The position numbers and the translations under genes were made by a program. A stretch of DNA of 60,103 nucleotides, the filler included, from Dugesia japonica (lineage: Eukaryota): NCBI GenBank assembly GCA_001938525.1. It is 5 parts of 5 records of this genome, joined end to end, with 100 filler letters (N's around TTAATTAATTAA, not from the genome) between each part and the next. Parts side by side here need not be neighbours in the genome. Positions count along the whole stretch, not along the records: positions 30,355 to 39,346 come from MQRL01636596.1; 4 more parts are not named here. One strand, written 5' to 3'. The first letter of the stretch is position 1; each line of letters opens with the position of its first letter. Shown piece after piece: positions 10,867 through 60,103 of this stretch. The notes below the pieces were generated by a model that saw only the letters and a list, made by a program, of their open reading frames with translations, made no database searches and was not told the DNA's origin.

Positions 10867-11253
10867 TTACGATTTAAAAATGTCAATTTTCCAAACAAGC
10901 CATGTGGTTTAGCACATAATTTTGTCAAGCGATACACCAATCCTTACAATAAATCTGCCGGCATCCTGGTTGATCGTTCAAACCTGACTCCAGAAAATGC
11001 AACAGATGAACGTCAGAGAAACGAACTGGAGCGGGAGACCTATCGAAATTGGACAGGTCCCAATCGTTACCAGGAAACTTTTTTCGCCACCACGACATCT
11101 TCGATAGATGAGAATGGTGTTCGCTACATCGCTCGAGAATGGCAAGTAGAGCCTTCCTCCATCCCGCTTTCTCTTGCTCACTCTCCTACTCCTTCGGAAA
11201 TGAGAGAGTTCATCGATGACATGTTATGGAGTATTAAGAGCACTGAGAACTAA
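10867..11253 (+). other. 128-codon stop-to-stop open frame of unknown family (no upstream ATG)
   Basis: LRFKNVNFPNKPCGLAHNFVKRYTNPYNKSAGILVDRSNLTPENA...DDMLWSIKSTEN*. GC-richer than its flanks. A 21-aa motif is shared with 4805-4867 (minus). Confidence 0.45.
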
Positions 11254-11623
11254 CCTTTTGTGCATTGGTATTTATCTAGTAATAAAATTATTGTACCTGT
11301 TAGCCAGTTGTAGTTTTATTTGTCGTTAGATTGAAATTTAAATCTTGAATAATGGTGTTCGTTAAACCTTATTCCATGTCTTCCTTTAGTGAATAACTCT
11401 CGGAGTCGGTCCATCGCTCCTACCAAAGCGTTACGTGAAGATAGTGAGGACATAGAGATGTCCTTGGATCTATACTGTGATATATTAAAATAATGATAAT
11501 ATTTAAATATATCTAAATTCAAATTATTGAATATTTAAAATATTAAAATGAATTTGATTTATTTTAATATTGCTATTTTATGAAATATAATTTTGACCTG
11601 GTAAATATCTTACTATTTAAATT

Positions 11624-13710
11624 ATGTTCAAAGAAAAGGAAACTAAGTTGTTCAAGTTCATAATGGACAATGAAAGCTCAGTCAATATTCGAGAACATCT
11701 AAAAAACGTCAAGGCCTTTATAAATTTATTCGATGCTTGTAGCATCACCACAGAAGAGAGAATTACTATATTTAGTAAATATTTTGACGACAACTTGACG
11801 AAGGAAATAAAATGTGATCCAAGCTGTGAAAGTACAAAGGTGGATATCGATTACTTGGAAAAACATCTTATCACTTTAATGGATGTTAAACCATCAAAAA
11901 TTAACCAAGCTATGATAATACTTGAATTAATGCAGTATCGAGGAGAAAAAATAACGGATTTTGCTAAGCGTATTCGTATGGAGAGCAGTGTTTTATCTGA
12001 CAAGAAAGACAAAAATCATGGTAAAAGCATTTATTAATGGCTTGTGACATTGACAATTGGCAAATGCACTAAAAATATTCGAACCAAAATCATTGGAAGA
12101 GGCTGTAGAAAGTATAAAAGATGAAAAACTTACAGATGTCTACGAAACGAATGAAAATGTATAATGTAATATGCGCCAAGAGAATGAAACTATAAAGAAT
12201 TTGAAAATTGAAATAGAAACTAAAGAATGAAATTTCCGAACTAAAGAGACACAATTAGAAATCTCGTGCACCAAATGTGTTTAATAAAAATAGGAATAAT
12301 AATGCACAAAGATCTGAAAAACCCTAAAAATGGATAACTATGGGTAGGCAAGAAACAAGAATATGTTTTACATGTGGTAAAAAGGCCATATAGCTAGAGA
12401 CTGCAATATCAAAAAATGTTTCAGGTGTGAGGGTGACCATCTTAAAAGAAACTGGAAACAAAAAGCAATCTAAGATACTATTACAAAAAGAAGAGCAAAC
12501 AGAATCCGTAATCAATGATGAACCAGAAGAAGAAGATCACATCGATGAAGTGAATACGATAAGTGAAAATAAACCATCTTGGAACACTCATTAATCTACT
12601 GAACTAATTAAAACGTTTAAACCGTTACTTGAAGATAAGTATGTCAATTTTATCGAAGGAAATCGAGCACGACCAAGACAAACACTTAGAAAATATGAAC
12701 TAACACTAATATCAATATCAATGCCAAAAAAAGCAAGAAATAAACCAATTGTTAAATGTCAGGTTGCAGGGATACCAGTAAAAACTATGTTTGACATGGG
12801 CGCTGATTTGAATGTTATAAGCCAGGAATTAGCCGAGCGTATCTGTAAAATGAACCCTGCTGTAAGAAATTTTAAATCTATAACAAAAGTAACATGCGCA
12901 AATGGTACAACAGAAGAATGTTTGGTGAATATACAATTAAATATGTCAATTAGACCTGTAATGACAGCACACGTGTTTGATATTATGCCGAATATATTTC
13001 CACATCTATATATTGGATTAAGAAACATGAAAAAATACGAAATAATAGTGGATGCAGAAGGGATGGAATAATAATACAGAATTTTAAGATTCCATTTATT
13101 TCAAAAACAGTTCTACCTGAGTCAATAAAAAACTAACACCGATCGCGTTAATGAGTTGTAATTCGGGATTCAGAAAAGCAGAGACTCGTGAGATTTATAA
13201 TGATAATCAATTTTATAGAATTCCGGTATCTGAAAATGTAGATGTAAGTGGAATTGGTGGATATTTTATCGAAGGCATGATAATAAACCACTCAGATCAG
13301 AAAATTACTTATGACACGAGTTAAGTATGGATTTTCACTGGAGATAAATAGAAAATGGCCGTGCGGAATCTTTTAGTAACAGATGGAATTACAATCGATA
13401 ATAATGAATACATGTGGGTAAGAATATATATGTTAGAAGGCGGATATAAAACTCTACATAGTGGAACTACACTCGAATATGTAGATTAGTTTAATCAAAA
13501 CGAAGAAGTGTTTGAAAAAGTATCACTTAGACAATTGTACTCTGAAAAACAAAGAACAGTGGAAGAAATTACAGACAATATACTGCAGAAAATTAAAAAT
13601 GATATGGAAGTTAAAAACAATTATTACGATTTGGTCAAAACATTAGCAATCCTTGAAAAGAATAAAGATGTATTTAGTCGATATAAGATGGATGTGGGTA
13701 AAACTGATGT
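11624..13710 (+). mobile_element. Ty3/Gypsy LTR retrotransposon gag-protease-(RT start), degenerate
   Basis: Gag-like ORF; frameshifted CCHC knuckle CFTCGKK(G)HIARDC at about 12363; aspartic protease FDMGADLNVIS; pre-RT KNKDVFS..KMDVGKT. Truncated by a linker. Confidence 0.85.
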
Positions 13711-16501: not shown

Positions 16502-17016
16502 ATGTAGTTAAAAATCCAAGTTAGACTATTAAGCAGGTTAAACCATGTTTATTGCATATAACATAAAAGAACAATAAATTAATTTCATATCTATTTCCAA
16601 TATTTTCGTAGTATTCAAAATCAACAAAATCAACTTTCAAAAATTAAACTTAAAACAAACCACATTCTCTCATACATACTTTTTATTTTTATTGAAAAAC
16701 AAATTATAAAATCAATATTTTAAACAAGCATTAATAAAAATTTAAAGAATTATCAAATTGCAAATGCAAAATATTTTCTCAGTAAAATGAAATATTCATC
16801 ATTAATAATTTCAAATTTGAAAACAAGAAAACGATTTTAATTCGATAATTGATTAATCGATTATATTATTAAGCATAAATTAATTCATGGCATTTAATAT
16901 ATAATATTGATGAAAATTATTTCAGTTACAATTTCAACACATTTACTTTAAATTTTTCCATTAAATTTTTAATTGAATATAATATAATTCCAACAATAAT
17001 AGATTTTAATACTTAC

Positions 17017-17484
17017 TTGAAAGCGATCTAAAGCAATTGCAGTAATGCTAATAGTGCTTACAAAGATGTTTGTACCCTGCAATAAGGCACTCAATTTACA
17101 CATTGGGTCCCCCAACACCCATTCTTGTTGACCAGATAATAATCGTATTAAATTAAATGGCTCGGTAAGTATACATAAAATCAAATCAGAGATGGCTAAA
17201 TTGACAATAAAAATATTTCTTGGACTTCTCATACTGCGACCGTGTACAACAGCGTATATAACAAGAGTACTGCCACAAGCTCCAAAAACCATTAAAGTTA
17301 CATAGATTGCGATCAAAATCCACAATACAGTACTACTTAAACTAAGTTGAGATTGCACTCGCATCTCTTCGAAAACAGCATCAAAACCAACACGGTTAGT
17401 TATATAAGCTGGATTACATCGGTGAAAATAAGATTGAAGATCTTTATAACTGTCGATAGGAATTGTACCACAGTCGTTTGTCAT
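17017..17484 (-). CDS. Neuropeptide Y/NPF-like rhodopsin-class GPCR, coding exon 1 (N-terminus, TM1-TM3)
   Basis: MRSPRNIFIVNLAISDLILC (TM2), WVLGDPMCK (ECL1/TM3), VSTISITAIALDRF (DRY-like). ATG at 17484; GT donor caa|gtaagt after 17017. Downstream exons were not found in this block. Confidence 0.88.
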
Positions 17485-18329
17485 GACTCCATTAAATATT
17501 TTCAAAAGTTGAAATTCAATAATAAAACAGACAATATTTCTGATTAATTTATGATTCGTTAACCAATCAAATTTAAATAATCGTTATTTAATATTAATGA
17601 GTAAACAAATTTATAACAAAGTTTAAGCTTATCATTTTTATTTTATCAAATTAAAACTGGTATCATTAATTTGTAATGGAAATATACGAAAGTTTTGAGA
17701 AATTTTAATTTCGAAACCTGAAATTTCTACTGATTTTTTGGAATTAAATTATTATTTTTTTGATTTTAATTAAATTAAATAAATGTTATCTTACATTTAA
17801 AAATGTTTTTATTACTTTTATTTTGACTTTTTTAATGCGTATGTTTGACTGACATAAGCACTGAATAAATTGTAAAATAAAAAAAAAGTACACTGAAAAA
17901 TCCAAATCCAGTGGGAAAATGGATAAATAAACATCAAACACAAATCTAGAAAGCAAGAATCAGGAAGAGAAATTAAAAATCAAAGAAACACAGGAATCAA
18001 ATATAACTAAAGAAAAAATAATTATGTTAGACAGTTTAATTGAATAAATAATAAAAGTAATCATAATACAATTTTAAATAAATCATATAATTTCCTTTAA
18101 TTTCTTGTTAGACATCCGAATGTTTCATAATTCTTTAAAATCAGCACCTAATAAAAATACAGCTGATTTTAAATTTTAATAATCATTGCTTTTAAGTTAT
18201 GTATTACATCATTCGGTTTGGTTTTAGTAAATAGATTTTGGTTTTAGCGTGATACCTTAATGTGTGAATCAAATTTTAATAATGGTTTTACTGCCGACCT
18301 CGCCGAAAATATTAATGTCATAACTTGCA

Positions 18330-21599: not shown

Positions 21600-24500
21600 T
21601 TAGAACATCAAATTATCACAAATGGAGAACCAATAAATACAAAGCCATAGAGACAACCAATGCATTTAGAGAATAAGATCGACGATGTTATCAAGAATTT
21701 GTTTGACGACATTATAAGGAAGCGTAAATTGCAATGGAACACTCCGTTAATATGTGTTTGGAAAAGAGAAAGGAAAGACATTAGATTATGTCTAGACTTT
21801 AAAAAACTGAATGTAATCACAGAAAGACAGGCCTTTATAATGCGTAATGTAAAAGAAATACTAGACGATTTGAGTGGTGCAAAATAGTTTAGTACTATTG
21901 ATCTGTGTAATGCATACTTTCAAGTTCCTTTACATAAAGATTCACAAGAGAAAACGGCATTTTCTACGAAAAATGGACAGTATTGTTTCACAAGAATGCC
22001 TTTCGGTATAGCTGCAGCACCTGGAACGTTNNNNNNNNNNNNNNNNNNNNNNNNNNNNNNNNNNNNNNNNNNNNNNNNNNNNNNNNNNNNNNNNNNNNNN
22101 NNNNNNNNNNNNNNNNNNNNNNNNNNNNNNNNNNNNNNNNNNNNNNNNNNNNNNNNNNNNNNNNNNNNNNNNNNNNNNNNNNNNNNNNNNNNNNNNNNNN
22201 NNNNNNNNNNNNNAGTAGAAGTCAAATTTTTAGGACACGTCATAGACAAGAATGGAGTCCGAACTGACCCAACAAAAATTAAAGCGATAAAAATTTTGGA
22301 AGACCTAAATGTGTGAAGAACTTGAGAAGCTTTTTGGAAATATGCAATTATTATAGACGATTTATCAATAATAACTCAAAGAAAGCTAGAAGCTTGGGAG
22401 AGCTATGTGGATGTAACAATAAAAAACTTTTATGGCCTGAAAATTGTGATAAATCTTTTAATAACATGAAAGAGGCATTAACAAAAGCACCGATATTGAG
22501 TTTTCAGATATCGTAAAGATGTTTGTACTAGATATAGATGCGAGTTTTGATGCCATAGGAGAAGGTTTATTGCAAATAGATGAAACAGATTTAGAACAAG
22601 TCATCGCATATTAGTCACATGCAATATCAGCTCATGAGAAATTATATTATATAACAAGAAAAGAATAATTGACTATTTACTATTTTTGTAATTATTTTAA
22701 ACAATATTTGTATTGGAAAATATTTTCAGTGAAAACAGATCACAAGGTGATAGCATTTATGTAAAAGACAAATAAGCCAATTACTTCGCAATTTCAAACT
22801 TGGATGAATTTTCTTAGTAGCCTAGATAATGTATTGGAATTTAGACAGGGCGCGAAACATACGAATGCAAATATGCTATCAGGAATAAATTTGAGTACAT
22901 GTGTACAATGCTTAACAGATCATAAGAATCTAAAGGAAGGAAACATAAAAACAAGAACAATTAATAGTATATCAGGTTCAGATACATATTAATGACAAAG
23001 TAACGTAAAAGAAATTGAATAGATAAAAATGATATAAAAAATGGAACATGTAAAAAGTTTCGATTAATAGAAGATATAATGAAAACGAAAGATGGTAAAA
23101 TAAAGATTTCATCAAAAAAGAAAATTCAGGTGGTAAAAATGCCTAGTTTATTGGTTCACACAGGCACGGAAAAAATGATAAATTTGTTGGGGTCTCACTT
23201 GAGTCGAATGTGGAGAAAATGGGCTAGGGGGAAAAGACAGCCCTCAGGGGTCCCGTTCAAGAATTTACCTAATGCTTCTTATTAGGTCTTTAATGTGAAG
23301 CGGTTGACTCCCAACGCTTATTTGGAGTACTCACTTACACATCTTTTTGTTCAGGTTCAAGATTTCCCCTTATTTTAACTTATTAACTATTTGTAACAAC
23401 AAAATCATAGGAAGAGTTTATTTTTCACCAATTTACAAGTAATTTAGAGCACCCGGATCTAACCCCTGTGTAGGCTCCCTATGCATGAAATCAAAGGCGG
23501 CCTCATCATCGTCACTGTTCCAGCGAACCCAGGTTACCTGTTGCAGTTGATTTGATAGGTTGGCAATGTACTGCTGTAAAAATTCGATCTGTTTCTATTT
23601 CTTTAAATAATTTCATAGTTTTCAGCTGCTTTATTGGTGCCTATTTTTAGAGCACAGGCTGACTTTTCCTTCTTTGTTTCATTTTTATTTTCTGGTTTAC
23701 CATTGGTTGAATCTTTAAACCCTTTTTTCGTACCCTTTTAATGTTGGTTACTTTTTCCCCTTGGGAAATTCAATTGCGCCGAATTATTCTGCATCCGAAT
23801 TTTCTTTCCCGATCTTCTTCTGACTTTCTTGAGCACAGATATTCTTCTTAAATTGATTTTTTATCAATTAATTTCTCTTTTTGAAAATAAATTAATTAAT
23901 TTTTTCTTGTTAATTTTACATTATATTTTCATAATAATTTCCCATTTTTAGATAATAAATTATAATTATTCGCCACTGGCTTATTAAAATATTCTTTTTT
24001 TATAATTTTTTCCCGGACCCTCTTCTAATTATTGATCCGCCAATTATTGATAAATTGATAATTATTATTGCTTGTTTTTAATTTTCCAAGACTTATTTCT
24101 TCTTGGCGCCCCAGTTTTGGGCCCCTGAAGATGATATCATCATTATCGAGTGTTTCACCCCAACAATAATAACCGTCTTTTCTTTAAATTTCAAATCTTC
24201 TAGATAATTATTATTTCTGATTATTGTTGGGATGTGGTTTATTTAATTAATTAACTAGATCCCAACCTCCCGTTGTTCTTAATTACCTATTTTAGAGACC
24301 CTGAACGTGTTGTCCCTATGATCGGTATTTCATTCCAACAAATTATTTAATATTTGAAAAATGAATATGATATGAAAAAAATTTAGAGAAACTGTGTTAG
24401 CAGTAATTAAAGAATATACAGCGTGCCAAATGAACAAAGTAACAGCAATCACAGCAAAGGAGGAAACTATAAAGACTAATGAACCATTTGAGAATATTTA

Positions 24501-30254: not shown

Positions 30255-30354
30255 NNNNNNNNNNNNNNNNNNNNNNNNNNNNNNNNNNNNNNNNNNNNTT
30301 AATTAATTAANNNNNNNNNNNNNNNNNNNNNNNNNNNNNNNNNNNNNNNNNNNN
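30255..30354. other. Artificial contig-joining linker
   Basis: 44 N + TTAATTAATTAA + 44 N. Confidence 0.9.
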
Positions 30355-33300
30355 ACCTGTAGTACTTTCTAACAAATCTTTTAACACTCTTTTTACCTTC
30401 GCTGTAAGGTCTGTTTGATTACAATTCTGTGATGACACTGATTTAATGAATGCTGACTATCCACCTTGTTGATGGATCTATGGTTCAATCGTTCTCTGTA
30501 TAATTCCTGTCATCCGGAGCTGTCCTCCGTCTGGGAATTTTGCTGGTTTGTCCTTTGACAATGTGTATATAGCCTGGTGAAGTAGAAACGCTATGGTTAC
30601 TAGTGCTCTGTCTTTTGTAATTCCATAACGCAATAACTCGCATGCTACGCTTTCATCTTCTACTCTCGGTTTAATAGCACATCTCCATTTTGTCGATGGT
30701 ATTTTTATTAAAATCGGTNNNNNNNNNNNNNNNNNNNNNNNNNNNNNNNNNNNNNNNNNNNNNNNNNNNNNNNNNNNNNNNNNNNNNNNNNNNNNNNNNN
30801 NNNNNNNNNNNNNNNNNNNNNNNNNNNNNNNNNNNNNNNNNNNNNNNNNNNNNNNNNNNNNNNNNNNNNNNNNNNNNNNNNNNNNNNNNNNNNNNNNNNN
30901 NNNNNNNNNNNNNNNNNNNNNNNNNNNTCTGTCGGTTTAATTTGTATTCCGTTTTGATCATAACTGGGTTCGACACGTGGTCTGCCTCGTTTTCTGCGCT
31001 CTATCGATGTTTCTGCATCGCGTAATTCTCTTACTTCAAAATTATTTTCAAATGCTCTGCTGGGATTAATGACGTCTGTTGTATTCATTGGTTCTTGGCG
31101 TAAGAAATCAAACATGGGGTCGTCTTCTGTAATTATCTCGGTCGTTACAATTTCTTCAGCATCTAAATCTACATCATTTATATCTCTGTATGTTGGAGTT
31201 TTTTGTCTGGTTACTTCAGTTCTGCTTACTTTTGATTCTGGTTGCTCTACTTCTATGATTTCGATATCATCGTTTTCACTTGAGAGTCTGGATCTCCATG
31301 CTGTATGATCAAATATAGTTTCCTCTGGTTGGATACTTTCATAATTATCCTCTAAAAGTGCTGAATCTCCTCTACCAGTTGTATGGGTACTTGTTCTTTC
31401 CGGTGGATCAAAATTAGCTAACAATCGTTTAAATGATCGTATGGATTCGCCAGTACTTTGTTTTTCCGTTGACTTGATTTGAGTTTTAATATTTTCTGCT
31501 TCTGGTTTATTTCGTGAAGTGGCATATTTCTCTTTACGCTCGCTGCTCCTGGTTCTTATCGATGATTGAATTGGTTTGTCTTTTGCTCGAGTGCTACCTC
31601 TGCCGGTACTTGGTTGATCCTTTCTTGCGTTCTTACTTGGTTGATCTTTTCTTGTACTTGTACTTGGTTGATCATCTATTTCTATTATTTCCGGATCTTC
31701 ATCTTTTTTCTTTAACCAATGTTTTGGTGGTATAGGACGTACTGTAATTGCGTTTGGTCGTTTTGAGTTGAGTACTTGCATACCGATAATTTCATCATTT
31801 TGTATTGATCTACCTCGTAATTGGAAAAAATATGGTTCAACCCATGGTAATCTCTGCTTTATTTTCCCCATTCCTTTGTATGCCAATACTTCTATCTTTG
31901 AAGTTGCGCCAACAGGATCTGTTATTTTAAGTTCAAACTTTCTTGGAGGATCTTCTTCCATTTCCATTCTACGCCATTTCTTTATTAAATTTTCCAAATT
32001 TTCATGGAACCAATAATTTCCTTCTTTAAATATGTGGTTTCCTGAATCTCTTCACCATATGTTGATACTAAATCGTTGATTGCTTTTCGCAATGTCTCTC
32101 GTTTATGTGCTTTAATTTTATTGAATCGGTCAATGATTTTTCAGATATTTTTATCCTTCAAACTGTTAAAATGGTATAAAAGTGTTAACACGCTTCGAGC
32201 TAGCTTTTGATCCTGTGGCTGGTCCGATTCTGTTGTTTCATCTATTTCCTGTTGTGGGACTAACGTTTTCCCGTTAAGAGCTTCCATTACTCTATCACAA
32301 CTATCCTTTACTGATTTTAAAATGGCTGTTACTGTTCTTGGTGTAAAATATCGATCGGCTGTTTTCCTGCTTTCCATGTCTCCTCTTCTCCATACATAAA
32401 TGATACTAGTGCCTGGCCATATTCCCATATCAACTAAATTTTGATCCTCTACATATAAATCAAGTAAGTTCTCATTACTTACCGCTTCTACATCGTCTAA
32501 AGAGGTTAGTATTCCTTTAATTTCTTCCGAGTCTATATTGTATGTTTCAGCAGATTTTATTTGTAATTTTTGTTTACTAGTTCTTGATTCATCTTCGTCG
32601 CTTGATCCTTCTTCTAGATTATTTCTAATGTCATTCGTTGACTTTGTTGCTTGAGTTGTGCTTTGCAGCATGTTTATTGTTGCCATTGTAGTTGATATTT
32701 TTGGTTTAATTTCTGTTTCGAAGATATTTCATATATCGTCATTTATTTCTGATACGCTACGAATGCAAAATCGTTTCCACACCTCCGCTGGTATGTCGGG
32801 AAATTCATCGAGATGTATTAACCTGAGCCTTGTTTCTCCTCCAGGTCTTATTCCTGCATTACACAAATGTTTATTGCTGCAATCAATGTACACTAGATTC
32901 TAATTATTTCGAATAATGTATTCATCCAGTGGTTTGTTTAATGGTAATTTTCTTAATTCTCGTTTTAGACTACCTACTAAAACGGAGTCAAGCTGGATTC
33001 GTTGGCTTTCTTTTGCATATTTTTCCGTGATTCTGAATCCGCTGGGCCTGGTTATTGTAAATATTTTATGTCTGTAATCTTTTACTGAGGCTGCCCAATT
33101 TGATTTAACTGGTAATGCTAATGCATAGTGTCGGCATAATTACTCAATATTAAATAATAACTTCTTGTAAGTTTCTGTTGTTATCAAATTTCTCCATTGT
33201 TTGGCTTTTTCCTGTGCCAATGTAGCATTCATTATTTCTGGGGAATAATCTACAAATTTTCCTGCTTGTTTTGCGATTAGCATTTCTCTTTTATCCACTA

Positions 33301-33810
33301 CAGCTTCCATTTCTCTAACATCTTTTATCGGAATTTCATCTGGAATTATCACTCCTGGCCTAATATTAGGTTTGGCTACTTCTATAACTCTTTTTAAGAG
33401 TTCTTCCTTTAATTCTTTGCCCAGCTCCTGGGCTTTTTGCGTTTCCTCAATTACTATTTTTTGTATAAACCTCCACTATAAAGAGATCTTCTAAATGTTG
33501 TAGTATTTGCGTAATACTTCTGGATTCGTAGAAAGCCTGTAGTAGATTTCGCGATGAGTGGATTTTATCCCACTGAACCATTTTTATCGTGGTTATCTCC
33601 CCTGGTCTGATACCAAAGGTCGTAATATGAGCATTATCGTCATTCAGATTGATGACCGTTTGCCTTGTAATAGATGCATAATTTTGCAATGGCTTCAAGT
33701 GTTGGATTTTCTCTACCTTATTAGAGCTACCTTTTAAAGCTTGGTTTAATTCTTGATCTTGAAATAATTCGGATTCGGATTTACTTAAAGATCGGATAAT
33801 TCGTTTATTT
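30355..33810 (-). pseudogene. Degenerate, apparently intronless multidomain polyprotein (GIxPG repeats, low-complexity linker, AT-hook, Bcl-2-like domain); probable retroelement ORF
   Basis: ORFs 33447-33698, 33140-33352, 32141-32686 and 30708-31997 join through isolated stops and frameshifts into about 1100 codons. BH1/BH2-like motifs at 30442-30651. Confidence 0.7.
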
Positions 33811-34454
33811 GGTTGAGAATCCAGTGTAAAATCGATTTACAATCTATTAGATTCTGTTGTTGATGAATTTGTTATTTGTCGGTGAATTTGTGTTTTTGTT
33901 GTTTGAAAAATTTATTGATTTTAATGTCTATGAGTATTATTTTAGGGACACTAGCATTTTACCCCATTAAATATATAAATGAATAATCAATTAATACTTG
34001 CTTACCCGCTTCAGCCATTCTAATCGATCTTAATACTTCTTTTCTGTCATCATTTTTCATCAAATATTTTACGAGTTATTCAATTTCAACGGTTAAAATG
34101 ATTATTTTTGCCGTATTTAACTAGTTTTATTTCGATATATAATTAATATGCGTTCTTTTATAAATAATATAAGATACTATACTCGTCNNNNNNNNNNNNN
34201 NNNNNNTCATCCCGATGGATTGGAGAACGACACACTCGAACAAGGTGGAACAAGTCTATACCCGCCAGAAGGTAGTACACCTTGCCAAGCCAGTCGCTCC
34301 CAATCTTCCTTTCGAGACACTGAACCCTTCTGCCGATGATTGGACACTACGAAAGTCTCCAAGACCAGTCCACCAGGAGATCCTGCCCGACCTTGATCGC
34401 AATTTTCCGTGACATAGTCGCTTTCGCAGCTCCGTGAGCTCATAATTACCACAT

Positions 34455-35113
34455 GTGGTTTGCTGACCACACAAAATATAACAGTGGTTTGCTGACCACT
34501 AAAAAGGCCCAAAATGAGGATGGTTTGCTGACTACCTAGAATAATATAATGGGTACAATATCCGAAAAACAGTGATTTGCTGATCACTAATAATAGAATG
34601 GGTGGTTTGCCGACCACTAATAATTGAATTGGTGATTTGTTGATCACCAAGAATAATGGGGCCAAAATAATATAGTTATCATAATCATTTTCATAACTTA
34701 CTTCCTATTTTAACCATATTTTTTGTATTTTTTCTCTTTCTGCGCGCACTTTCATCTTTGCTTTAACACCTACCATCTACCTAATTCTGGTCACAGTTAT
34801 TAATAGCTCTTTCAACTGCTTTGATTGTGAGTTGATCAGACTCATCTCCACAGCCTTCCGAACCAAGGCTTTATTTCCTATGATCAAAACTAATGTGCGT
34901 TAAATGAAAAAGTTACCATTTCTTAAATCCACGCATGGTTTTTAGTCTGGGATCAATGCATCAGTCGGAGCTAACTTTATTTTATCCTAGTCTTATATTT
35001 TATTTTCATTTTTATCATATTTGATTTATCATCATTTTAATATCATGGGTACTATGCCCGAAAAACCGTGATTTACTGATCGCTAATAATAGAATGAGTG
35101 GTTTGCTGACCAC
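34455..35113 (+). repeat. Array of eight 16-bp palindromic units, consensus GTGRTTTGCTGAYCAC, with variable spacers
   Basis: Copies start at 34455, 34484, 34520, 34572, 34602, 34632, 35068 and 35098. Confidence 0.9.
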
Positions 35114-37499
35114 TAGAATAATAACAGTGGTAATCATGGCTCATAAATAACGATATATGTTCATTTCTATTTCTTCATATATTTGGTCGTATTTACTTTA
35201 TTTTCCTAATTACTGCTCCGACTCAACAATTTCATTCTTATTCCTATTTATCATTTATAATTCTTACTATCTATTTCTACATTGATCCCCATAAAGTNAT
35301 TGTAGCATTATTACTATCGTGAGTGAGTTTATTATTCGATTCATTTTTATTCAGAATTGCTATTTTTATTTTGAACATAATTTTACTTTTTTTTCATTTT
35401 ATCATATAATTTATTATTTTATTAATTCATATTTTATTACATACTCAATCAATAATCGTTGGATTGGAATGCTGGAATTTCTATCGTAGAATAAATGTAA
35501 AATTTCCTGAATATCAATTTATCAACATTAATAATTATTAAATTATAAATCCGAATTATCTTTGGTTATATATCTCGTAAATTAGTTTGAACAGTTTCAT
35601 TCAATATATCTTTTAAAACCATTACACCTTATTTATTTATGTTGTTTTAAATTGTACTTCAAAAGAAGCTCAAAAGTTATACATTTCGCACTCTAATTAG
35701 AGCTCTAGTTATTTTTGTACTTCTCAAAAGAAGCTCATTTAGTTAACCCTTAATNNNATCGTTCAGTTCAATTTTCTAGTTTATTTCGTCAATCCTAAAA
35801 TCCAGTTTTGTTAATTGTAAATCGCTTACAATTTTATCGTTTCTTGTAAAGTTTTGTTTAATTTTATTTATTATTCTCCAATTTCTTTTTTGATTATCAC
35901 CATCCAGTTTTCCATTTATTGTTGTTCGTTTTCTTATTTTGTTTCTTAGTTGATCACCAGTNNNNNNNNNNNNNNNNNNNNNNNNNNNNNNNNNNNNNNN
36001 NNNNNNNNNNNNNNNNNNNNNNNNNNNNNNNNNNNNNNNNNNNNNNNNNNNNNNNNNNNNNNNNNNNNNNNNNNNNNNNNNNNNNNNNNNNNNNNNNNNN
36101 NNNNNNNNNNNNNNNNNNNNNNNNNNNNNNNNNNNNNNNNNNNNNNNNNNNNNNNNNNNNNNNNNNNNNNNNNNNNNNNNNNNNNNNNNNNNNNNNNNNN
36201 NNNNNNNNNNNNNNNNTATTAATTCGTTTTAATATTTTAATATTCGTTTTATTTCCTCCGATTTTTTACGATTTAATATTTATTCGTTAATTATTTAAAT
36301 TATTAATTCGATTAATAATTTAATTTATATTTTAATTTTCTTCATTTCACAATCGCAATATTAATTCGTTTAATATCAAATATACCAAATCGTTTAATGT
36401 ATAAATTTATATTAATTCATTTAATATCTGAAATTTTCCTTTTGTTTTAATTTACCCAAATTACATTTTTATTTTTTAATGGTTTTAATATTAATTCGTT
36501 TAATATAATGAGAGTAGGTAAATGTGAGCGGATGACCGCACATCCCCCCACTGATCGATATATTGATTTTCGATATTGATTGATTTTTTTTGTTTTTTTG
36601 TTTAGAGTGCTGGGGAAGTGGAGGGAGGTGTGACATGCGCTCACATCAACCGCTTTTTGTAAATGCTCTTTTACACGGGAATTTCAAATTTTTTTGGTGG
36701 GAAATTTAAATTATTTTTTTCATGTTAGGATTATGGATTTTAATGGGTCTTTGAAAAATAAATATAAATTCATAAGTAAATATAATCTAAAAGGTTTCTA
36801 AGGGTTACAATTACTAGTTATCGCGTTTTTGTTGAAAAGAGTATTGCGAGGTTTTGTGGGATTTGGATGAAAGACGGTTTGAATGAACGAGAGTGAGTAG
36901 GGGTAGGTGATGGTGTCTGGTTTCGTTATTTTTTAGGTGATGATGTGTGTGTAAGTATATATTGAAAAACGATAAAACACATCCTTTAAGATTTTTGGGG
37001 TTCGATGGTAGATTTAATTTGGCCCTCAAAATTGGTCTATAGGTTGCTAAATGTAACTATGGACCAAAACGCACTTGAGGGTTGCAGTTATGGGTTAAAA
37101 TTAACTGTTAGTTACAGTGATAATTTTTCACATTTTTGTTAAAAACAGGGTAGTTATGTGAGTTTTAGTTGGATTTGGATGAATTTTGGTTTGAATGAAA
37201 GAGGGTGAGTTGGAATATGTGATGGTTTTGGTATTTGTTTACGTGATGGTGGTGGTGTGTGTTTAAGTATATATTGAAAAAAATGAAATTCGCAATATGT
37301 AGCTTTTGTTGCAAAAATGAATTTCAAATATATTTTTAGTGGTTTTATGAGATTAAAAATGATTAAACATGTGATTTGGGATTGTTTTGTGTTTCTCATG
37401 TGTTGCATTAATTAATATTTTAAATATTTCTTTATTTACTACTTATAAAATGAAAACTATTACAATACTAAACATTTATTGTTACAACATTTTAATTTT

Positions 37500-38750
37500 T
37501 CTTCTTTGTCTTCAGCTTTTTTTGTATTCCATAATTGTAAATCCATTATTTTTTTTAAGGTTTTCTACCGATTTCCCGTACAAGTTGTTGTTAACTAGTT
37601 TGTAATAATTTTTTTTCAAGTTCTGTATTACATTCTGCTCTTAATGTAGTGTTTGTTTCAATGTAATTTTCAAATACATGACCTTGAGTAAACCTTACCG
37701 CTCTATGGATCTCAGTCACCTTTACTCCCAAACTTATATATATATATATTTGTAGCAGTTTCCAGTGCAATACATGATTAGTTTTAGCGTAATTTGTTAA
37801 AATTAACTTTTAATTTTACTGCTTGGAGCGCTTTGCTGTTCTGCTGCTACTGGTATACCATTAAGATAATCATGAATTTCTAGTTGGATTATCATGTCTA
37901 CCTCCATGGTATACTCATCTGTTAATTTATCAAGATACAAACTTTTAAAATCTTTTAATACTTATTCTAAACCAGTATTTACCCACTCAAAGTCTTTAAA
38001 TTGTAATTTTTGGCTAAGAACCCATCCATACAGATTGTTAATATCAATATATTGTTATATCTGTGTTTTGACTGGTGGTGACACGATGTTTGTTAGCAAA
38101 TGTTAATCCACCCCTTATTCCACCTTCGAAAAAGGAATACATATCGTTGTCAATCAACAGTTCTATCGGTTCCTTCAATGACATCAAGGCTGATGCCAGC
38201 TCAAACCCGATATGCCAAAGAAATTTAATGGATCCAATTTATTGTGTGATATTAATTTTAATCTGAACTGTTGGAAAAGATCCACCAATAAATACACGTC
38301 CAGCTTCAAGTAAACAATCAAATAGTCCAGAAGGGTCTTACAATCTGTTATTCTCCACATTTCCAGTGCTTTTTCATACTCTTCATCTGTGATTTCATTC
38401 AATTTCAGTAGTGTGAGACATGACTGTTGTTTTTTTTTGTTGTTTCAACCCGAACTTGCAAACTGGTTGCATAATTATATGGAAATATCCCCTTTGACGT
38501 TGTTATTCTTCTATATAAACAAACAAATCGCCGTTTTAAAGTGTTGGTATTGTTTTTGCATCAACCTATTAATAATACTAACCAGAAATGCTTTTTTAAT
38601 AGTCACATTTTCGTATGTATTGACCGGCAGTCAGAAAGGGTTGCCGAGACTTGATTATATCTTTTATTGTTATTTAACCTTTGTTTTAGTGGTTCGCAAT
38701 GTATTTTCGGTTGAAAAGCACAAGTTTAGAAATAACAGCCTAATATAAAA
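37500..38750 (-). mobile_element. Polinton/Maverick protein-primed family-B DNA polymerase remnant
   Basis: KGIFPYNY; DYLIVYLKLDVYLLVDLFQQFR..LDP; FEGGIRGG; YIDINNLYGW; GYTMEVD; YYKLVNNNLYGKSVEN. Confidence 0.88.
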
Positions 38751-39346
38751 AAGTAGACTTTATGGAACATTAAAAGTGTAACTAAGTTTTTGAAATACAT
38801 TTTTTAATGAAAAAGAAATTTTCGAGTTACAAAGCTAATATTTTAACAAGACATTTTATCGAAAGATTTATCATAAATATGCTGTAAAACGATTTAATTG
38901 TATTTCATAATTTGGTAATTAGTATTTACATACATGATAGAATTTCAATGAAATAATGGAAAATGAATAAATTTAATTTTAAACATTTTATAACAAACAA
39001 CTATGGTTTATTATGATGTAACAATAAATTTAATTTATTTGCAATTAATAGAATGCAAATGAGTCAATTTTCAATTGTTATTAGTAATACATCTAAATTA
39101 TAAAATTTTGTTCAATAATTCGCATATTGAAATCAATAAGTAGTATCGTATAATTGCTCATATAAATACCCATAAAAATGCTAGCATGTATTAGTTTCTG
39201 CTTTGTGCAACCAATTAAATGAATGGAATAATTTAAACGTGACAAATTGGTGATTGGACTTTAAGTTTATCCATGTCTGCAATTTATCACAGCAAATATT
39301 TTAAATGTTAAAGATTTTCCAATTTGAAAATGAAAAAAATGTATAT

Positions 39347-49835: not shown

Positions 49836-52800
49836 TTATTGATCATCGGAACCTGAAAATGAAATTGAAATAAAAATTTGAATTAATGACTGTAAGCGCA
49901 GTTGATTTTTCAAAATAACTTTATTTAAAAAAAACGAGTAGTGTAACGACATCAAAATAGAAATAGAAAAGTGTCATCTTTAAGACATGTAGCCGCACAA
50001 CAAAAACACTCCATCAATACTTCAATCTAACCTGACGACATGCATCCTGTAGACAATTGCTCAGAAAGAGACGTTAAGTCATCGAATGGTTGGGAAACTC
50101 TAACTAAAGTGCTACCAGTTGTTGTAGTCAATGTGGTTGAATCTGTAGAATGACAACTCATTTGCATTATTGATGAACTCATTGAAGTAGTTCGGGATGA
50201 AGACGTCAACAAATCAATAGCAAGCCCAGCAGCAGAGTCTGAATCAATTTGTTGTAAAGACTCAGCTCTTTGAGATGTGTATATCACAGAACATTGTTGA
50301 CTAGAGCCATTACTAGTCATAGAATGCGTTTCGCTAAAATCCAGTAATTCATCAATAATTGCAGTTTCTTTCACTGGACTAATATCATCTATACTTGGAG
50401 ATTTAGTCATAAATGTGAATTGAGACTTTTCTTCAATTAAATCATCCTCTAATCGTTCAAATTCTTTCAATGAAGATGATGAATTAGAATCATCAAAATG
50501 ACAAAACCTTTGCTTTTTGCGACATTTCTCAATTTGATCCGAATCCAATTTTAAATCAGATAAAATTTCAGGAGATTTATCAAAAGATTCTGTACACTCT
50601 ATTATAGGTGATAAAGGTACAAGATCTAAATCGTCTCCATTGGTGGTTAAAATCAAACCAACATTTGGGTCTTCCGCTTGAAGTGACAATGATAAAGAAG
50701 GCGGTTCTTTACCGATCCGATTCCCAATATCATTATAATTTAAAAAATAATCACAGTCATCAATTAATGGAGAATCGGGTTCTAAAACTGGACTAAGATC
50801 ATCATCAAATGTGTCATTATTAGATTTATTTTGCTGAATAATACAATTAACAGAATCGGTAATAATTTTCTCCACTAATTCTTCAGCAATAATAAGAATA
50901 ATTTCAGTATTTTTGGCAGATTCAATAATTGATTCAACGATATTATCAGATTTAACAACAATATTTGCAAATTTAATAACGCCATCAATTAATTCAGAGA
51001 CTAACACATCAATATTTGATTCATCAGAAAGATTATATGATTTAATGTCATTATTGACTGTAGATGTCTCAATATTATCTTGTATATGATTTATTTTCTT
51101 ATAATTATGACCTTCTTCAGACTGATCAGGCGATTCTACTGTTTCCAAATCACAACTCAACGCTGCTGGCATACATGAATTGTGTCTACTATTATCTAAA
51201 AGTGGTAAGATTCCAGGGATTTTTGTAGGAAAATCTGTAAGCATTTCTTCTTTTAAACACTCAATTTGATGAGAATAATCCTCTTCTAATTCTTGATCAC
51301 TGTCATTTGGAAGTGAAGTATGGTCACTGCCCAGAGGTTTATACAAATTATCACAAGTAGGATTAGACGGTGAATCTAATTTTTCATGCGGCCATTGTTC
51401 ATTTAATAACAAAGTTTTAAAAGAAGTGACTTGTTCATCAACGTGTTGTCGTTTGCTAGAAAGCAAGTCGTCAGGATCGATCTTTAAAGCTGAGGAGGTT
51501 ACAGAGAAACAACACGGATTTTGATTAAAAGATTCTGAAAAAGCTGTCAATAAAAATACCTTACTCAAAAATCATCGTAAAAAGATAATACAATAACAAG
51601 TTAAATCAATTTTAATAAAATAAACGAACTAAAATATTGAATATTATAAATGAAAAACATATTATAGCTAAATATTAAGCAGCGCTAAGCAAAGAAGCAA
51701 TAATCCTATAACAACCTAATTTACTAAAATTGAAAATTTCCCCATTTTCTATATCATCTTTGTCTTCGAAATTAAAATCACATTCCGATGATGATTCAGA
51801 AGAAAATACTAAATTATCAGAAGATTGGAATCTGTAAACATTTAATTGACCTTTGATTAAAAAATTATCAGCCACAATTTTTTCCGTTTGAATGAATTCT
51901 ATATTTTCTCTTTTTAATGACAAATGCTTTTCTGATATTGTTGGTGCGTTACATGTATGGTCAAATATCGTCTTGATATTTAATTGACAATAATTAGTTA
52001 AATTTTTAGGTTTTTGAGTCAATTTATAAATAGATTCTTCCATTGAAATGCGTGCACAAAGATGAGACTTTTGATTTTCGTTGTCATCACTATGTAGGCA
52101 ATTATTATGGGAAAATGCACTATTAACTTCTAAATCAATGACATTTGATCTTAATTTATTTGAAATTATGTCATATTTATTTCGACGATTAATAATTGTA
52201 ACAGGTGTCGTGCTTTGAAATTCAGGACTACTAGGGTGCTTGTAAACAGGTATATTGACTTTAGAATTAAAACTGAAATGGGAGTCACTATCACTGAGGC
52301 AATTAAAATCATCATCGGTATCGGAAGCATGTGCTTTGATTTTAAATTCAGTGAAGCTTGGCGATAAATTACTCACGTGAGAACTCGATATTTTCGTATC
52401 ACACGTTCCTAACATTTTAAATAAAATAAATGTAAATTTATACATAAAGATGCCTCAAAAATAATAAATAACTGTTCAAATTTCAATTTTTTTTTATCAG
52501 AATATTAAAAATCGCAAAATACAATAAGTTTCAAAAACTGAACTTTTTATCAGAAAAAATTAAGAAAGATCACAATAAAAAAATAATGATAACAACATAC
52601 AATTTACAAAAAAGCGAAGGAAGTAAAGAAAATTTACATTTTATAAACGTAGAATTTCTGTTTTTTAAAAATTAATTTTGTTTTACACAGTAAAAATAAA
52701 AATATAAAAGAAATAATTTTTAAATTTAAAGTAATTCAAATTTTATAAAGGATTTGCGGAAAGAATGTTTCATAAACCAAACATTCTTTAAATCACAAAG

Positions 52801-55800
52801 AAACCCTTAGATAAAACAAAGTGTTCACATAGTATTATATAGTAAATAAAATAATTATTTAATTAAGCAGCATTTATACAGATGGCCTAAAATTATTTAA
52901 ACATACATGTGGATTATCTTCAATCGGAAAATTCAATTTTTATAATTATCCAAAAGAATTAGATAAAAAATATAATTATACTTCAATACATTAAAAATAT
53001 ATTTCGCAGTTAATTTTAATTTTTAAAAAAAAATATTTTGTCTAAAAATACAACAGTAAATATTTTATTTTTATTTAAAAAAACAAATTTCTGATTTTCG
53101 AAATCTAATTTAACTAAGAAGTAAGGCCTATAGAATATATACTGTCAATGTCATTAAGCGACGGATCCGTGAATCTAGCCTCCTATTTTCACAATTACCA
53201 AATAAATTTATTACGTCATCATTTATAACACCGATTTCCCTATCGATATTTAATCATGCTAAATCTAACAATCTTATTTTATTTCTTGAGTCTAATCTTT
53301 TTAAGCATAAGAAACTTCTTTCCAAACAAGCAATCAAAATTAATGGATAACAATGAAAATGTTATTGCATAAATACCCTCGTCAAGATAAACAAGTATTT
53401 CTTCCAAAGTTAAGGATAGAGAAGCTTCAGATTGAATGGATTACTTCAATAATAAATTTAGTTCAGTGGTCTTCAAATTGTGTGCCACGGCACACAAAGA
53501 AATAAAGTATTTTAACAATTTTTTAAATTATTATGTTGATATTTGGTATCTTTTAGGATTCCAAAGGTATTTGCGCTTAAAAATTTTAGTGTGCCGTCAG
53601 AAATTTTTATCGTTTAGATGTGCTGTGACAGAAAAAGGCTTTCCTACCACTGATTTAGTTCATAACTTATATTCATGTGGGTAGCTATTCCATATCGTTT
53701 TATCATTATTGGCGAAAAAGACTAATATTTTCGAAAATCCTGCCACACGGAGGCGATGTCAAATTGACATTATCAATTATACTAATTTAATGATTATTGT
53801 CAATTTATTCAGTTATTCTGGATAATATCTGATTTTATTTCAAATGTGTACACATTTTCGGAGAGAGGAAATAATAAAAAATTCGAAATTATTTAAAACT
53901 TGTAATTGTGTAGGTGTTATACGGATTCTTGTTTACAAATACTTTTGTGAAAATAAAGTAATTATATATTATTAATTATGTATTAAGATAATTATTTTCT
54001 AATTTATTTCCTGATTTTTTACTGTTGTAAACTATATTTAGAAATAATAAAATTTAAAAATGAAAAGAAAATATGAATACCAATTGGCAAGTTTGCATTT
54101 TCAGACTTCTTTTCGAAATCTAACATAGATTTAATGAATTTCAATTTTAATTTAGAAAAATACTTACCACAAAGAATATGATCATCGTTCGGTGTAGATG
54201 GAGGTGAGTAAGGTTGATCTGGCTTGAATTCTGCGTAAGTATCTCTCACTAGAAAATTAGATATTTATTCTCATATTTTTCTGAAAATTTAAAATATACA
54301 TTTATGACTTTTAATATTAACTTCGAATTGATCATCTTCATCTGGTGTATGATCCAAAACATAGGGAAGTGATGAATTTTCTAGAACAATAACATCTGGC
54401 TTTTTCACTTTTTCAGCAGTAATTTCTTCCTCTGAGACAGAACCTGAAAAAAATTAATTATTATATTCTTTATAAAGAAAGTCTACTATCATCAAATGTT
54501 TCATGTAAAATTTGAGGTTTAGGTAATATTTCATCCAATTGATTGATTAAATTGATAAAAGCGTCGGTTTTTTGTTTGGTTAAATTTTCATCATCTTCTT
54601 CTGTTCTTAAAATTGATCCTGGTTTTAAAATAGGAACGATTAGGGAATCATCTCCTAAAAATTATTGTTATCAATTTGAATATAAAAAAATTAACAAACC
54701 GTCGTCGGCATAATCAGATGCCTGAATATCATTTTCTCTTTGAGAGGCTGTGTCATCACCAACTTCAACAACCATAGATTCATCTACTGATCCAGTTTTA
54801 TCAGTGTTTAAATGATTTACATCTACTATATATATTTATTTATTATTCATTTTTAATATTCATACCGTCATGTTTTCCTATTGCTTTTAATGCCAGTCTT
54901 TTTTCATCTTCATCTGTAACAATTGATGAAAATATCACGCAATTTTTTACCACATCGTCCCGATCAATTTCACGTAACGCATTTTCTAATTCATTTCCTA
55001 AATTATAATATATATCTCATAACACAATAATAATCACAAGCTATATATTATCTAGATTTAATGAATATTAAAAACACTGAAAGCCATTTCAATATACAGA
55101 ATATCTGTTAACTTCAGATACAATATTTAATTTAATAAAGTTCTGATTATGTAATCAATTATGCAATCTCTCCAATAAATCAAATTAATTAAAAACATTC
55201 AATAAAGATTAAGACCAGCGTGAACATTAATTTTTGGATTAATTGACCTAATCATGAATGTTTCACACATAACTCTCTCTCAATAATCTGATAACTGATT
55301 ACCAATAATCATTATGTTCAGCCTTATAACTTCCACTACCAACTCGACGATGCTCCTGAATTCTAATACAGAGATGACGGAAAGCCTATCCAATGTATGT
55401 GGCATTACGCCCCTAACATTCATACTTATAAGTACGATCAGAACACAATTGAATTGGTGTTTTAGACTTATTACTAAACATATTTATGATTTTATAAGAT
55501 TGAGAAACAATTTTAAATTCAGAGTAATTTCTATATTTTAACAACCCACTCTTAAATTGTTTAAATCCTTCTGAACATGGAATAGTTAATACGTAGCTAA
55601 ACTTATCTATCTTATCTGGGTCTGTGATAACACTTTCACAATTTAAATTATTATTAACATTATTATTGACATCTTTAATTTCATTATTATTTTTATAAAC
55701 GATATTATCAATTGTTTCACAATTTAATTTCTCCACAATTGATTTACAATAACCATTTTTATTTAGTAAAGAAATTAAACAAGACATCAAATATGAAGAG

Positions 55801-58800
55801 GAAAGAGTCCACGATCTATTCAACAGTCCTTTAATAATTTTGCACTTGTAACGAGATTCACAAAAACTGAAAGGAGATGTATACAAACCTGTATCGGTTG
55901 GTTTGTGATAAACCTCTGTTTCATCATGTTTGGATTTTCTTTCTATTAATATGTCAAGGATAGAAAATTTTTATTAAAAAAAATTGCCGTTTTCTTCGAT
56001 TATTTAATGAATGGTTATTACGTAATAAAACATGTAGATAATACAAAAATTGTATATTACCAGATAAATCTCCTTTTTTAGCTCTCCACAAGATCAATAA
56101 GGCATATGCTGCATCTTGGTCGGTAGAATTATTTCTGATATTTTCTAAATCATCAGGATTAGTAATTCCTAGAACAATTGCAAGTTTTTCCCAATCTCCT
56201 CCAATTTGTTCGGCGATTGAATGTAAATCAAATTCAGATTTAGCAATTTTATCGGTGCAAATACCTAAAGAAAAATACGTCATAAATAACACGAAACTCA
56301 AGATTACATATTTAAATTTTGTAATACACAATAAATTCTAACATTACACAAAATTAGTTACTATTTTTGATCTAAACATTTTCTTGAGTGCCTCATTGAT
56401 ATCGATTTTTAAAGCGTATTAAAAAGAACTATTCAACGTGACAAGAAATTAAATAACAAACAAACTAAATGTTTGTATCATAAATATTATAAAAATAGTT
56501 AGCAACATATTCCTTTTGTAGCATTTATTTTAATTTTTGAGAGTTTATAATATAAACTGTATTTTAAAAAAAAATAGAATTTTTCGTTTAATTGAAATTA
56601 ATCAATATCCAAGATAAAATATGTATAAATTACTTGGTTTAATAAATTCTCCTGTTTTAATTTTCTTTCTTCGAAGAGTATCTGATACTGGATAAATTTC
56701 ATTTGGCAAACAAATCTCAAGCGTTGTAATTGGCTTTTGAACTGCAGTGGTACCAAGTACATTTCTAAAGTGAAGAATTATTAATTTTTTATAGCTTAAA
56801 GATTAATACTAAAATATTTTTCAATGAGAACAAATCTAATGTAATCAAACTAAAAATTATAATTTAATGATGTCAAGAAATGTAATGTTTTTCTTATTCT
56901 AACATGAATTGAAAATTATTTGTAACTTAGTCACATCTCTTCAATATTTGAAATTTTACAAATTTAACACCACTGAAATTATGAATTATAAAACTGTAAA
57001 TGGAAGTAAATAAAAGAGATTATCGGAAAACATTAAATATATTTTAATTTAGATCAAATTCTAAGTATTTTTCGAAATGTATAAATTTGTCAATTTTATG
57101 AAAAAATGTCATTATTATCTATAACAAGGGTAGTCGACATTTTTAAACCTACAACTCACCTTAGTAATATTTTTAGTGGTAAAATTTTAAAAAAGAATCT
57201 TAATTTTAGAACGACCGAAAAGCATTCTTAATTTTAGGATGGATGTTTGTGAAAATATACGGTAAATCTCATCATTATACTATTTATACATTCATGTTTA
57301 TTTTTTAACACAATGTATAAAGTAAAATTGATTTGATTCATTTCTACATGTAAATAACTTCTGAAATAATAATTCCACCGTTCAATAAAGAAACTTGAAT
57401 CGTTCTGATCTATAGTCTAGTTTTCACAGGAATAATAATGCCCAAATTCCACAGAGTACTCGTTTTTACTCAAATTTTTCAAACAATGTAGACATTTATA
57501 ATATAATTGTTTCTCAAAAACAAAAATCGTTGGGTACATAAGTTTTTAAAAATATTTACCCAGAACCCAATCCTTGATTTCTTTGATGAAGGAGAATTGC
57601 CAATTTTCCTTTGGGTTCTTGTTGAGTATCTTTAACACGAACCAAGAAGCTGATTCTATTTTCATTTAATGCTTCAACAGTCATACTTAATTGATCGCCA
57701 GTTTTAGTAACAGGCACAAGATTACCAGCTGTTTCGATCCAATGAGGACGATTGTGTAAAACCTAAAATGAAAATTTATTGCACTGATATAAAAATTAAT
57801 TGAATTTTAATAATGATAATTATTTCTAGAGAAATTGTCAGATTTAACCATTATTCTCATTTTTAATTTTTTTGACAGTATATTTTTATGGCTTTATAAA
57901 AATACACATATCCCCCGATTTGCATGGTATTTTATTTACACGATTTCTCTTTTACACGGCTTTTAAAAAAAATTAAATTTAGTCATTTTTTAGTCTACTC
58001 CAAATTTCATTTTTTTTTGTTTTCTTATTTGGAATTTTTAAAATTTCATATTCACTGGTGATAAACAATTATTGGGTAATCATTTTCTACAAAATGACCC
58101 CAATATGGAACAAGTTAGTCTATTTCAGCGAGATATTAATAAATACTTAATTCAATATGATGAGGTCTAAAAAGATATGACCAAAAACCAAACACAATTG
58201 TTAATTACGGATTTCATTACCAAGTATCGCAGATCTGAGATTGTTTCTAATTCATCGAACATCGAACTTAAATCGCGTCAAGTACTATCGAGTGATAAAA
58301 GTGACACCATGCCAAATAGGAAGAAAAGAATTATAGCCTACGAAAGTGATAACAGTAATTAAATTTTCAGTTAAATTTTTGGAATTTATACTTTTTGTTT
58401 CTATATGTAAAATTAATTACATAAATATACCTTTATATTTTTGTTATTTTATGAATAGACATGTTATTTTTGCTTTATTTTACGTTGAAATAAATAACGG
58501 AATTATGCACATTTTAGTTGGTTTCCGATTTACGCGGTTTTACGAATAAAAATCTACGATTTCGATATGCATGATTTTCTAAGAAATCTGTCTTCAGTTT
58601 AAATTGGAGGATATGAGTATTACCATTTTATCTCTATAAAAATTAGTTCTTAATTTAATTTGAAAAAAGCTCCATGGATTTGCTTAATCTATTAAAATTA
58701 TAAAATTTCTAATCTAATTTTAACTGAAAATGTTTACAGTTCAAATATAAATTAGCAGTAATTAAAAATTATAACTTAATACTTGTTCTTAATCACATAG

Positions 58801-59750: not shown

Positions 59751-60103
59751 CTAAAATTATTTTAGAAATGTTAAATTCAAAACTGAATTAAAATTAAATA
59801 AACAAGAATAGTCAAATAATGAATATTTCTCATGTTACCTTAATATTTATTTTAATTAAGAAAATTAGCTAGAATACACTTGTCATGTAAGAATATAAAA
59901 TAAAAACAAAATAGCCCAATAAATATGTGAAAAACAATAGTTGATTTTTAGTAAAATTAAATAATGCAATTTAAAATAAAATGTAATATATTTCAAAATT
60001 TTTAGTAATATCTAATATTCAGTATAATTGTTTAAATCTTCGTTTGAATAATATAGACCAAATAATCTCTAATTTTTCATTTGTCTGTTGATAACGGTTG
60101 ATA

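Follow-up and report, generated by a model that had tools for sequence, protein, structure and literature searches.

Results

A long, decayed reading frame at a scaffold end

The window analysed here, i.e., the whole stretch of 60,103 nt of Dugesia japonica DNA, holds five scaffolds joined by four occurrences of an artificial linker (N44-TTAATTAATTAA-N44). One of these linkers, at 30255..30354, cuts through an element whose coding part sits at the left end of scaffold 30355-39346. On the minus strand, a decayed long reading frame (30355..33836) runs through six stops, two frameshifts and a 209-N gap. Between 33836 and 30355, its 1,098 readable codons contain 6 stops against 82 expected from the base composition (Poisson P ~1e-27), and each of the six plain frames of the same span contains 43-93. 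The near-open minus-strand frame was thereby confirmed as genuine, as had been claimed in a preliminary description of an intronless frame of about 1100 codons with few stops and frameshifts. That description had joined five frames; a joined multi-segment frame is indeed present, but four segments were counted, namely, 33836-33450, with a frameshift near 33460; 33475 to ~32050, with stops at 33142, 32902, 32731 and 32143 and a frameshift near 32050; 32051-30930, followed by the gap at 30719-30927; and 30717-30355, with stops at 30480 and 30459. The phase across the gap is uninformative because the gap length is an estimate. The true start of the frame may lie further upstream than 33836, and at 30355 the frame is open, with neither a stop nor an anchor after its Bcl-2-like part. 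The coordinate at which the coding block had been said to end is correct, but the linker found there is an assembly artefact joining scaffolds.

Putative domains and motifs encoded by the frame

All features of the frame lie on the minus strand. Module M1 (33450..33836) ends in GIRPG followed by two predicted helices, is homologous to M2 (see below) and is likely ubiquitin-like. A charged, probably helical spacer without a Pfam family (33062..33475) separates it from M2 (32699..33061), which also carries GIRPG, contains two stops and is a likely ubiquitin-like beta-grasp module. After an acidic S/T linker follows the shorter M3 (32276..32590), with GIWPG. The motif GI[RW]PG thus occurs three times, closing three homologous modules of 100-125 residues. 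Alignment scores were 103 for M1-M2 and 62 for M1-M3 (0/1000 shuffles as high for either) and 46 for M2-M3 (2/1000 shuffles as high); with tblastn within the window, M1 matched M2 at an E of about 1e-5. The GIxPG repeats noted earlier are therefore three homologous modules with shuffle support, whose sequences, taken as a set of three, weakly suggest a ubiquitin-like nature. The modules have no terminal di-glycine.

Further downstream, a possible SUMO/Rad60-like domain was noticed by eye (31740..31945), a label given by a pattern that we presume to be diagnostic; the stretch had no match in the Pfam or PDB sequence searches and no similarity to M1-M3. The KDQPS repeats of the preliminary description were recovered as a 27-nt tandem repeat of 2.5 copies (31606..31673), reading DDQPS/KDQPS/KDQPS, within a charged P/S/T linker, and another copy of the family is 54 nt shorter here, in frame. 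A single KRGRPR motif (30975..30992) may be an AT-hook core, which we take its RGRP core to be, or a nuclear localisation signal. One such core is thus present, as the AT-hook claimed earlier, but Pfam returns nothing for it.

The last recognisable part of the frame is a Bcl-2-like stretch (30430..30660) with two stops, picked out by eye from ELLRYGITKDRALVTIAF and IHQQGG, which we take to be BH1-like and BH2-like motifs, respectively. No transmembrane anchor occurs between this stretch and the scaffold end. In Foldseek, BCL2 ranked first of 54 matches but with an E of 2.0, and Bcl-2/Bcl-xL made up 4 of the 36 matches listed; no Bcl-2 chain was among the 50 VIA matches listed. The Bcl-2-like domain claimed earlier thus holds as a motif resemblance, but the stretch had 0 matches in the Pfam and PDB sequence searches. 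Across the whole frame, these searches returned 0 relevant Pfam matches, 0 PDB sequence matches and no domain label above threshold, and the structure models had a pLDDT of 37.5 and 40. The labels Bcl-2, SUMO-like and AT-hook accordingly denote motif resemblance only.

An LTR-like edge and a structured leader

Upstream of the frame, the depth edge and a motif scan point to an LTR-like 5' end (35962..36645, minus strand), starting with TGTCAC (36635) or TGTGAG (36645), both of which we take to be LTR-like starts. The depth edge near 36640 is sharp and coincides with TGTCACACC (36635) or TGTGAG (36645) on the minus strand. The other end of the putative LTR is likely hidden in the N gap 35962-36216. 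The putative LTR is ~0.7 kb long, is no greater in depth than the interior and has no second copy within the window. The first 150 nt of the element (36491-36640, minus strand) fold strongly via an internal inverted repeat (z -4.3, 25 shuffles). Just outside the edge lies a low-abundance 170-nt direct repeat (36804-37281; 74% alike, ~310 nt apart).

A leader of ~2.1 kb connects the LTR-like end to the frame. Directly after the N gap, it contains a PBS-like TGGTGATC (35948..35959, minus strand), which at 35959 matches a listed tRNA end at 8/12 nt and shares 8 nt with the PBS of a Macrostomum GAG-ENV-POL element. The motif is ambiguous, since an identical 11-mer forms an arm of the hairpin unit 34628-34651. 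This unit belongs to an array of eight short hairpins (34451..35117, minus strand) of the form GTGRT-C(A/G)(G/A)(C/T)AA-AYCAC, with both-side changes in the stem. Pairing was found in 87.5% of 56 cells, with 7 both-side changes (0/500 shuffles as high), and the number of covarying pairs was not above that of the shuffles (172/500); the units are related by duplication, and the covariation is to be read as a lead. Its six-letter loop is conserved, the stem changes on both sides between G-C and A-U, and in one unit a PBS-like arm is paired with a tRNA-3'-end-like arm. The same region contains two blocks 496 nt apart that are 87% alike, and the stretch between them is absent from many other copies. 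Closer to the frame, a GC-rich block (~50%, in an otherwise AT-rich leader; 34207..34443, minus strand) contains a 78-codon ATG frame and/or a long predicted stem; it had no Pfam or Rfam match, and 34207-34660 folds better than 100/100 shuffles (z -3.7).

A very high-copy repeat family

The stretch is part of a very high-copy repeat family. Contigs falling on it numbered 20,202 of 10,004,874 in X1, 9,183 of 9,204,652 in X4, 10,868 of 10,231,477 in X6, 1,929 of 8,630,611 in X10, 2,307 of 22,321,871 in X16 and 3,305 of 30,583,802 in X8, the runs compared being four DNA or unlabelled, one guessed to be RNA and one labelled organism C. Related DNA is thus also present in X10 and X16, which are labelled as two other organisms. 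Family copies are mostly 90-99% alike. In X6, summed depth was 57,000-132,000 where the bins of the frame are free of gaps and 15,000-88,000 across 33955-36654; it fell to 448 just past 36654 and to 25 and 14.5 at 38755-39346, the single-copy flank. Summed depth is not a copy number, and the ratio of element to flank is several thousand. The locus hence clearly departs from a single-copy state, which the preliminary description had named as contrary to its reading, and its remark that no standard host-gene architecture is present agrees with the very high copy number. A host multidomain gene at a single-copy locus was considered as well and is made very unlikely by a depth 3-4 orders of magnitude above the flank. 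In X1, 52 records extend past the ends of the compared stretch; sequence searches found no longer relative.

A dead copy of a family frame with a sign of selection

The present copy is a dead, broken fragment. Four of its six stops each include a listed place at which >99% of the depth differs from it; the remaining two stops and the second frameshift are not among the places listed, and at the first frameshift other copies differ in length. Among the listed places, 42 are private to the present copy, of which the 4 within stops were skipped; 10 of the other 38 changes are synonymous, near the 21% of random change. Between lineages (the diverged RNA run or organism C versus the family), 8/12 listed places are synonymous and 10/12 fall on third positions. 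The two synonymous shares, 8/12 and 10/38, differ with a Fisher p of 0.017 in a small, tool-chosen sample restricted to places listed in the depth tables, with 526 and 506 further rows beyond the listing. One other copy shows in-frame changes in linker length (54 nt; 39 nt replaced by 3), and the other listed skips, of 80, 128 and 542 nt, are out of frame. As four of the stops are private and the between-lineage changes are mostly synonymous, the family gene appears to be under selection while the present copy is dead.

Gag, retroelement enzymes and other features of the window

The four frame segments contain 0 CX2CX4HX4C and 0 CX2C motifs, Pfam gave no gag family in the frame or upstream of it, and the minus strand of the leader offers no ATG frame longer than the one of 78 codons. 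Gag may be very divergent or positioned elsewhere; a gag beyond the contig end, as previously proposed, may be one option among several. Neither env, protease, RT, RNase H or integrase nor a second LTR or a target-site duplication was seen on the scaffold, which ends at 30355; a pol in the PR-RT-RH-IN order of Ty3/gypsy elements would lie beyond that end.

On other scaffolds, decayed LTR-retrotransposon pieces lie at 10867-13710 and 21888-22375 (both plus strand; aspartic protease E 6e-7, RT E 1.5e-8) and have no link to the Ub/BCL2-like frame. On the scaffold of the Ub/BCL2-like frame, a decayed piece at 37750-38760 (minus strand), within a medium-abundance repeat, looks by eye like a protein-primed DNA polymerase B (Polinton-like); Pfam gives no confirmation. 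On another scaffold, at 16972-17583 (minus strand), lies an exon of a neuropeptide Y/F receptor (GPCR), for which Schmidtea mediterranea NPYR-6 is 87% identical (E 5e-80) and the next match 45%; judged by this identity, it is likely the NPYR-6 orthologue, which points to a planarian host different from S. mediterranea and presumably of dugesiid type. Exons of an ankyrin gene (ZU5, UPA and death domain) occupy 50030-59787 (minus strand), along with two long acidic open frames, 514 and 259 codons in length, which may form a giant C-terminal exon.

Discussion

Taken together, the locus is a dead copy of a very abundant planarian repeat. It is probably the 5' end of a giant Ty3/gypsy retrotransposon of the Burro-like kind, comprising the LTR, the 2.1-kb leader and the first gene. 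The earlier reading as the N-terminal part of a giant LTR-retrotransposon polyprotein gains from the abundance, the LTR-like 5' edge and the order of ubiquitin-like before BCL2-like parts, but Gag was found neither in the frame nor upstream of it.

The class itself is already known: giant planarian retroelements that carry ubiquitin-like and BCL2-like cargo have appeared in the literature from 2018-2019 onwards. According to the available text of PMC6431247, which cites Grohme et al. 2018 and Jurka 2007, Burro/GYPSM1 elements, giant Ty3/gypsy LTR retrotransposons of dugesiid planarians, occur in thousands of copies and have an ORF1 of 4,873-5,140 aa in the order Gag, CCHC, MATH, Ubi2/SUMO-like, BCL2, env, PR, dUTPase, RT, RH and IN, starting with Gag and 2-3 CCHC knuckles in both species described, and with MATH in S. 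mediterranea. The same text reports that an accessory ORF lies upstream in D. tigrina, that the elements contain internal tandem repeats, and that fragments in D. japonica are decayed by stops and frameshifts. Compared by description, the present fragment resembles these elements in its planarian host, high copy number, long multidomain frame, putative Ub/SUMO-like part ahead of a putative BCL2-like part, internal tandem repeats and copies decayed by stops and frameshifts. It differs in that the frame opens with three tandem GIxPG modules and has no match to Gag, CCHC or MATH, and in a putative LTR of only ~0.7 kb. It is not assignable as a Burro member, because an N-terminal Gag was looked for and not found and env/pol, like most of the total length of over 20 kb expected of the group, would lie beyond the scaffold end; by analogy, the fragment may work like the Ub-BCL2 section of Burro ORF1. 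Nine flatworm GAG-ENV-POL errantiviruses with HSV/gB-type Env, described in the available part of PMC13524379, are also gypsy elements with env within the gag-pol order, and include the Macrostomum element whose PBS shares 8 nt of TGGTGATC; the main text of that paper gives 0 matches for BCL, ubiquitin or Burro.

Given the missing Gag, a non-autonomous derivative may be considered, i.e., a Burro-like element that lost Gag and perhaps pol, kept the LTR, leader and Ub/BCL2 gene, and is mobilised in trans. No Gag precedes the Ub/BCL2 part, unlike in the published ORF1, the family is very abundant while its frame shows selection, and the leader hairpins could be cis signals. However, the scaffold ends before the frame closes, as it would if env came next, and autonomous elements with upstream accessory ORFs are already known; we therefore regard such a derivative as improbable. 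The orientation of the element could also be the reverse. Because the two ends of an LTR are inverted repeats, the motif at 36635 could belong to either of them and might close a 3' LTR on its right side (reading GGTGTGACA) in a plus-strand element. The gene would then be an accessory ORF in antisense, placed behind pol or within a long LTR that bears genes. This appears quite unlikely, given that the plus strand of the scaffold outside the N gaps has no polypurine tract (at least 11 bases with at least 4 G), the PBS-like motif is on the minus strand, and the order Ub-then-BCL2 is that of the sense Burro ORF1. Just as slight is the chance that the frame is a cargo gene of another large mobile element (Polinton/Maverick, another DNA transposon, or a Penelope- or DIRS-like element): no retroelement enzyme was seen on the scaffold, which ends at 30355, and the decayed polB-like fragment lies 1.2 kb upstream, but depth falls ~60-fold towards that piece, so that the two are separate repeats, and the TG start, the leader and the order of the domains agree with Burro. 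A processed pseudogene, or a paralogue in decay, of a multidomain host gene would account for the lack of introns and the host origin of Bcl-2-like and Ub-like domains, but is very improbable, as the depth is 3-4 orders of magnitude over the flank even in 2.8 kb of non-coding upstream DNA and a search of 1.84 billion representatives gave no homolog for the 496-residue middle part.

For the preferred reading, as the 5' end of a Burro-like retrotransposon, the following mechanism can be proposed. The transcript would start in the LTR and run through the leader, whose hairpin array may offer repeated signals for docking or packaging. The first gene would encode host-interaction domains and not a capsid. 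Its tandem ubiquitin/SUMO-like domains may act as an adaptor or decoy, the basic AT-hook/NLS could serve an AT-rich genome, and the Bcl-2-like domain would bind pro-death partners and so keep the carrier stem cell alive. The frame would continue into env-protease-RT-RNaseH-integrase as in Burro ORF1, and the protease of the element itself would cut the domains free; since the modules lack a terminal di-glycine, host ubiquitin proteases are less likely to do so. A more specific proposal, which we put forward tentatively and consider doubtful, is that of a multi-thousand-copy lineage in which Gag was replaced or displaced by a triplicated ubiquitin-like module, together with a SUMO-like domain, an AT-hook and a Bcl-2 homologue under purifying selection, giving a Bcl-2 anti-death strategy beside the Burro1 IAP, with covarying leader hairpins that combine a PBS-like arm and a tRNA-end-like arm.

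There is a precedent for an anti-apoptotic role of a planarian retrotransposon protein: in the available text of PMC13465017 (citing Lee et al., Dev Cell 2026), the Burro1 B-IAP (RING+BIR) protects stem cells from apoptosis. B-IAP is an IAP acting on caspases, whereas the putative domain here is Bcl-2-like. Burro transcripts are under PIWI control, as stated in the part of PMC8532177 available, and the available parts of PMC11410931 and PMC13238120 provide general background only. Within this known class, the layout with no front Gag and three tandem Ub-like modules is possibly new, and also new here is the indication that a frame with a Bcl-2-like part is under selection across lineages. If a Bcl-2-like protein is indeed selected in such an abundant family, it would allow host-transposon mutualism in regeneration to be tested directly a second time, beside the Burro1 IAP.
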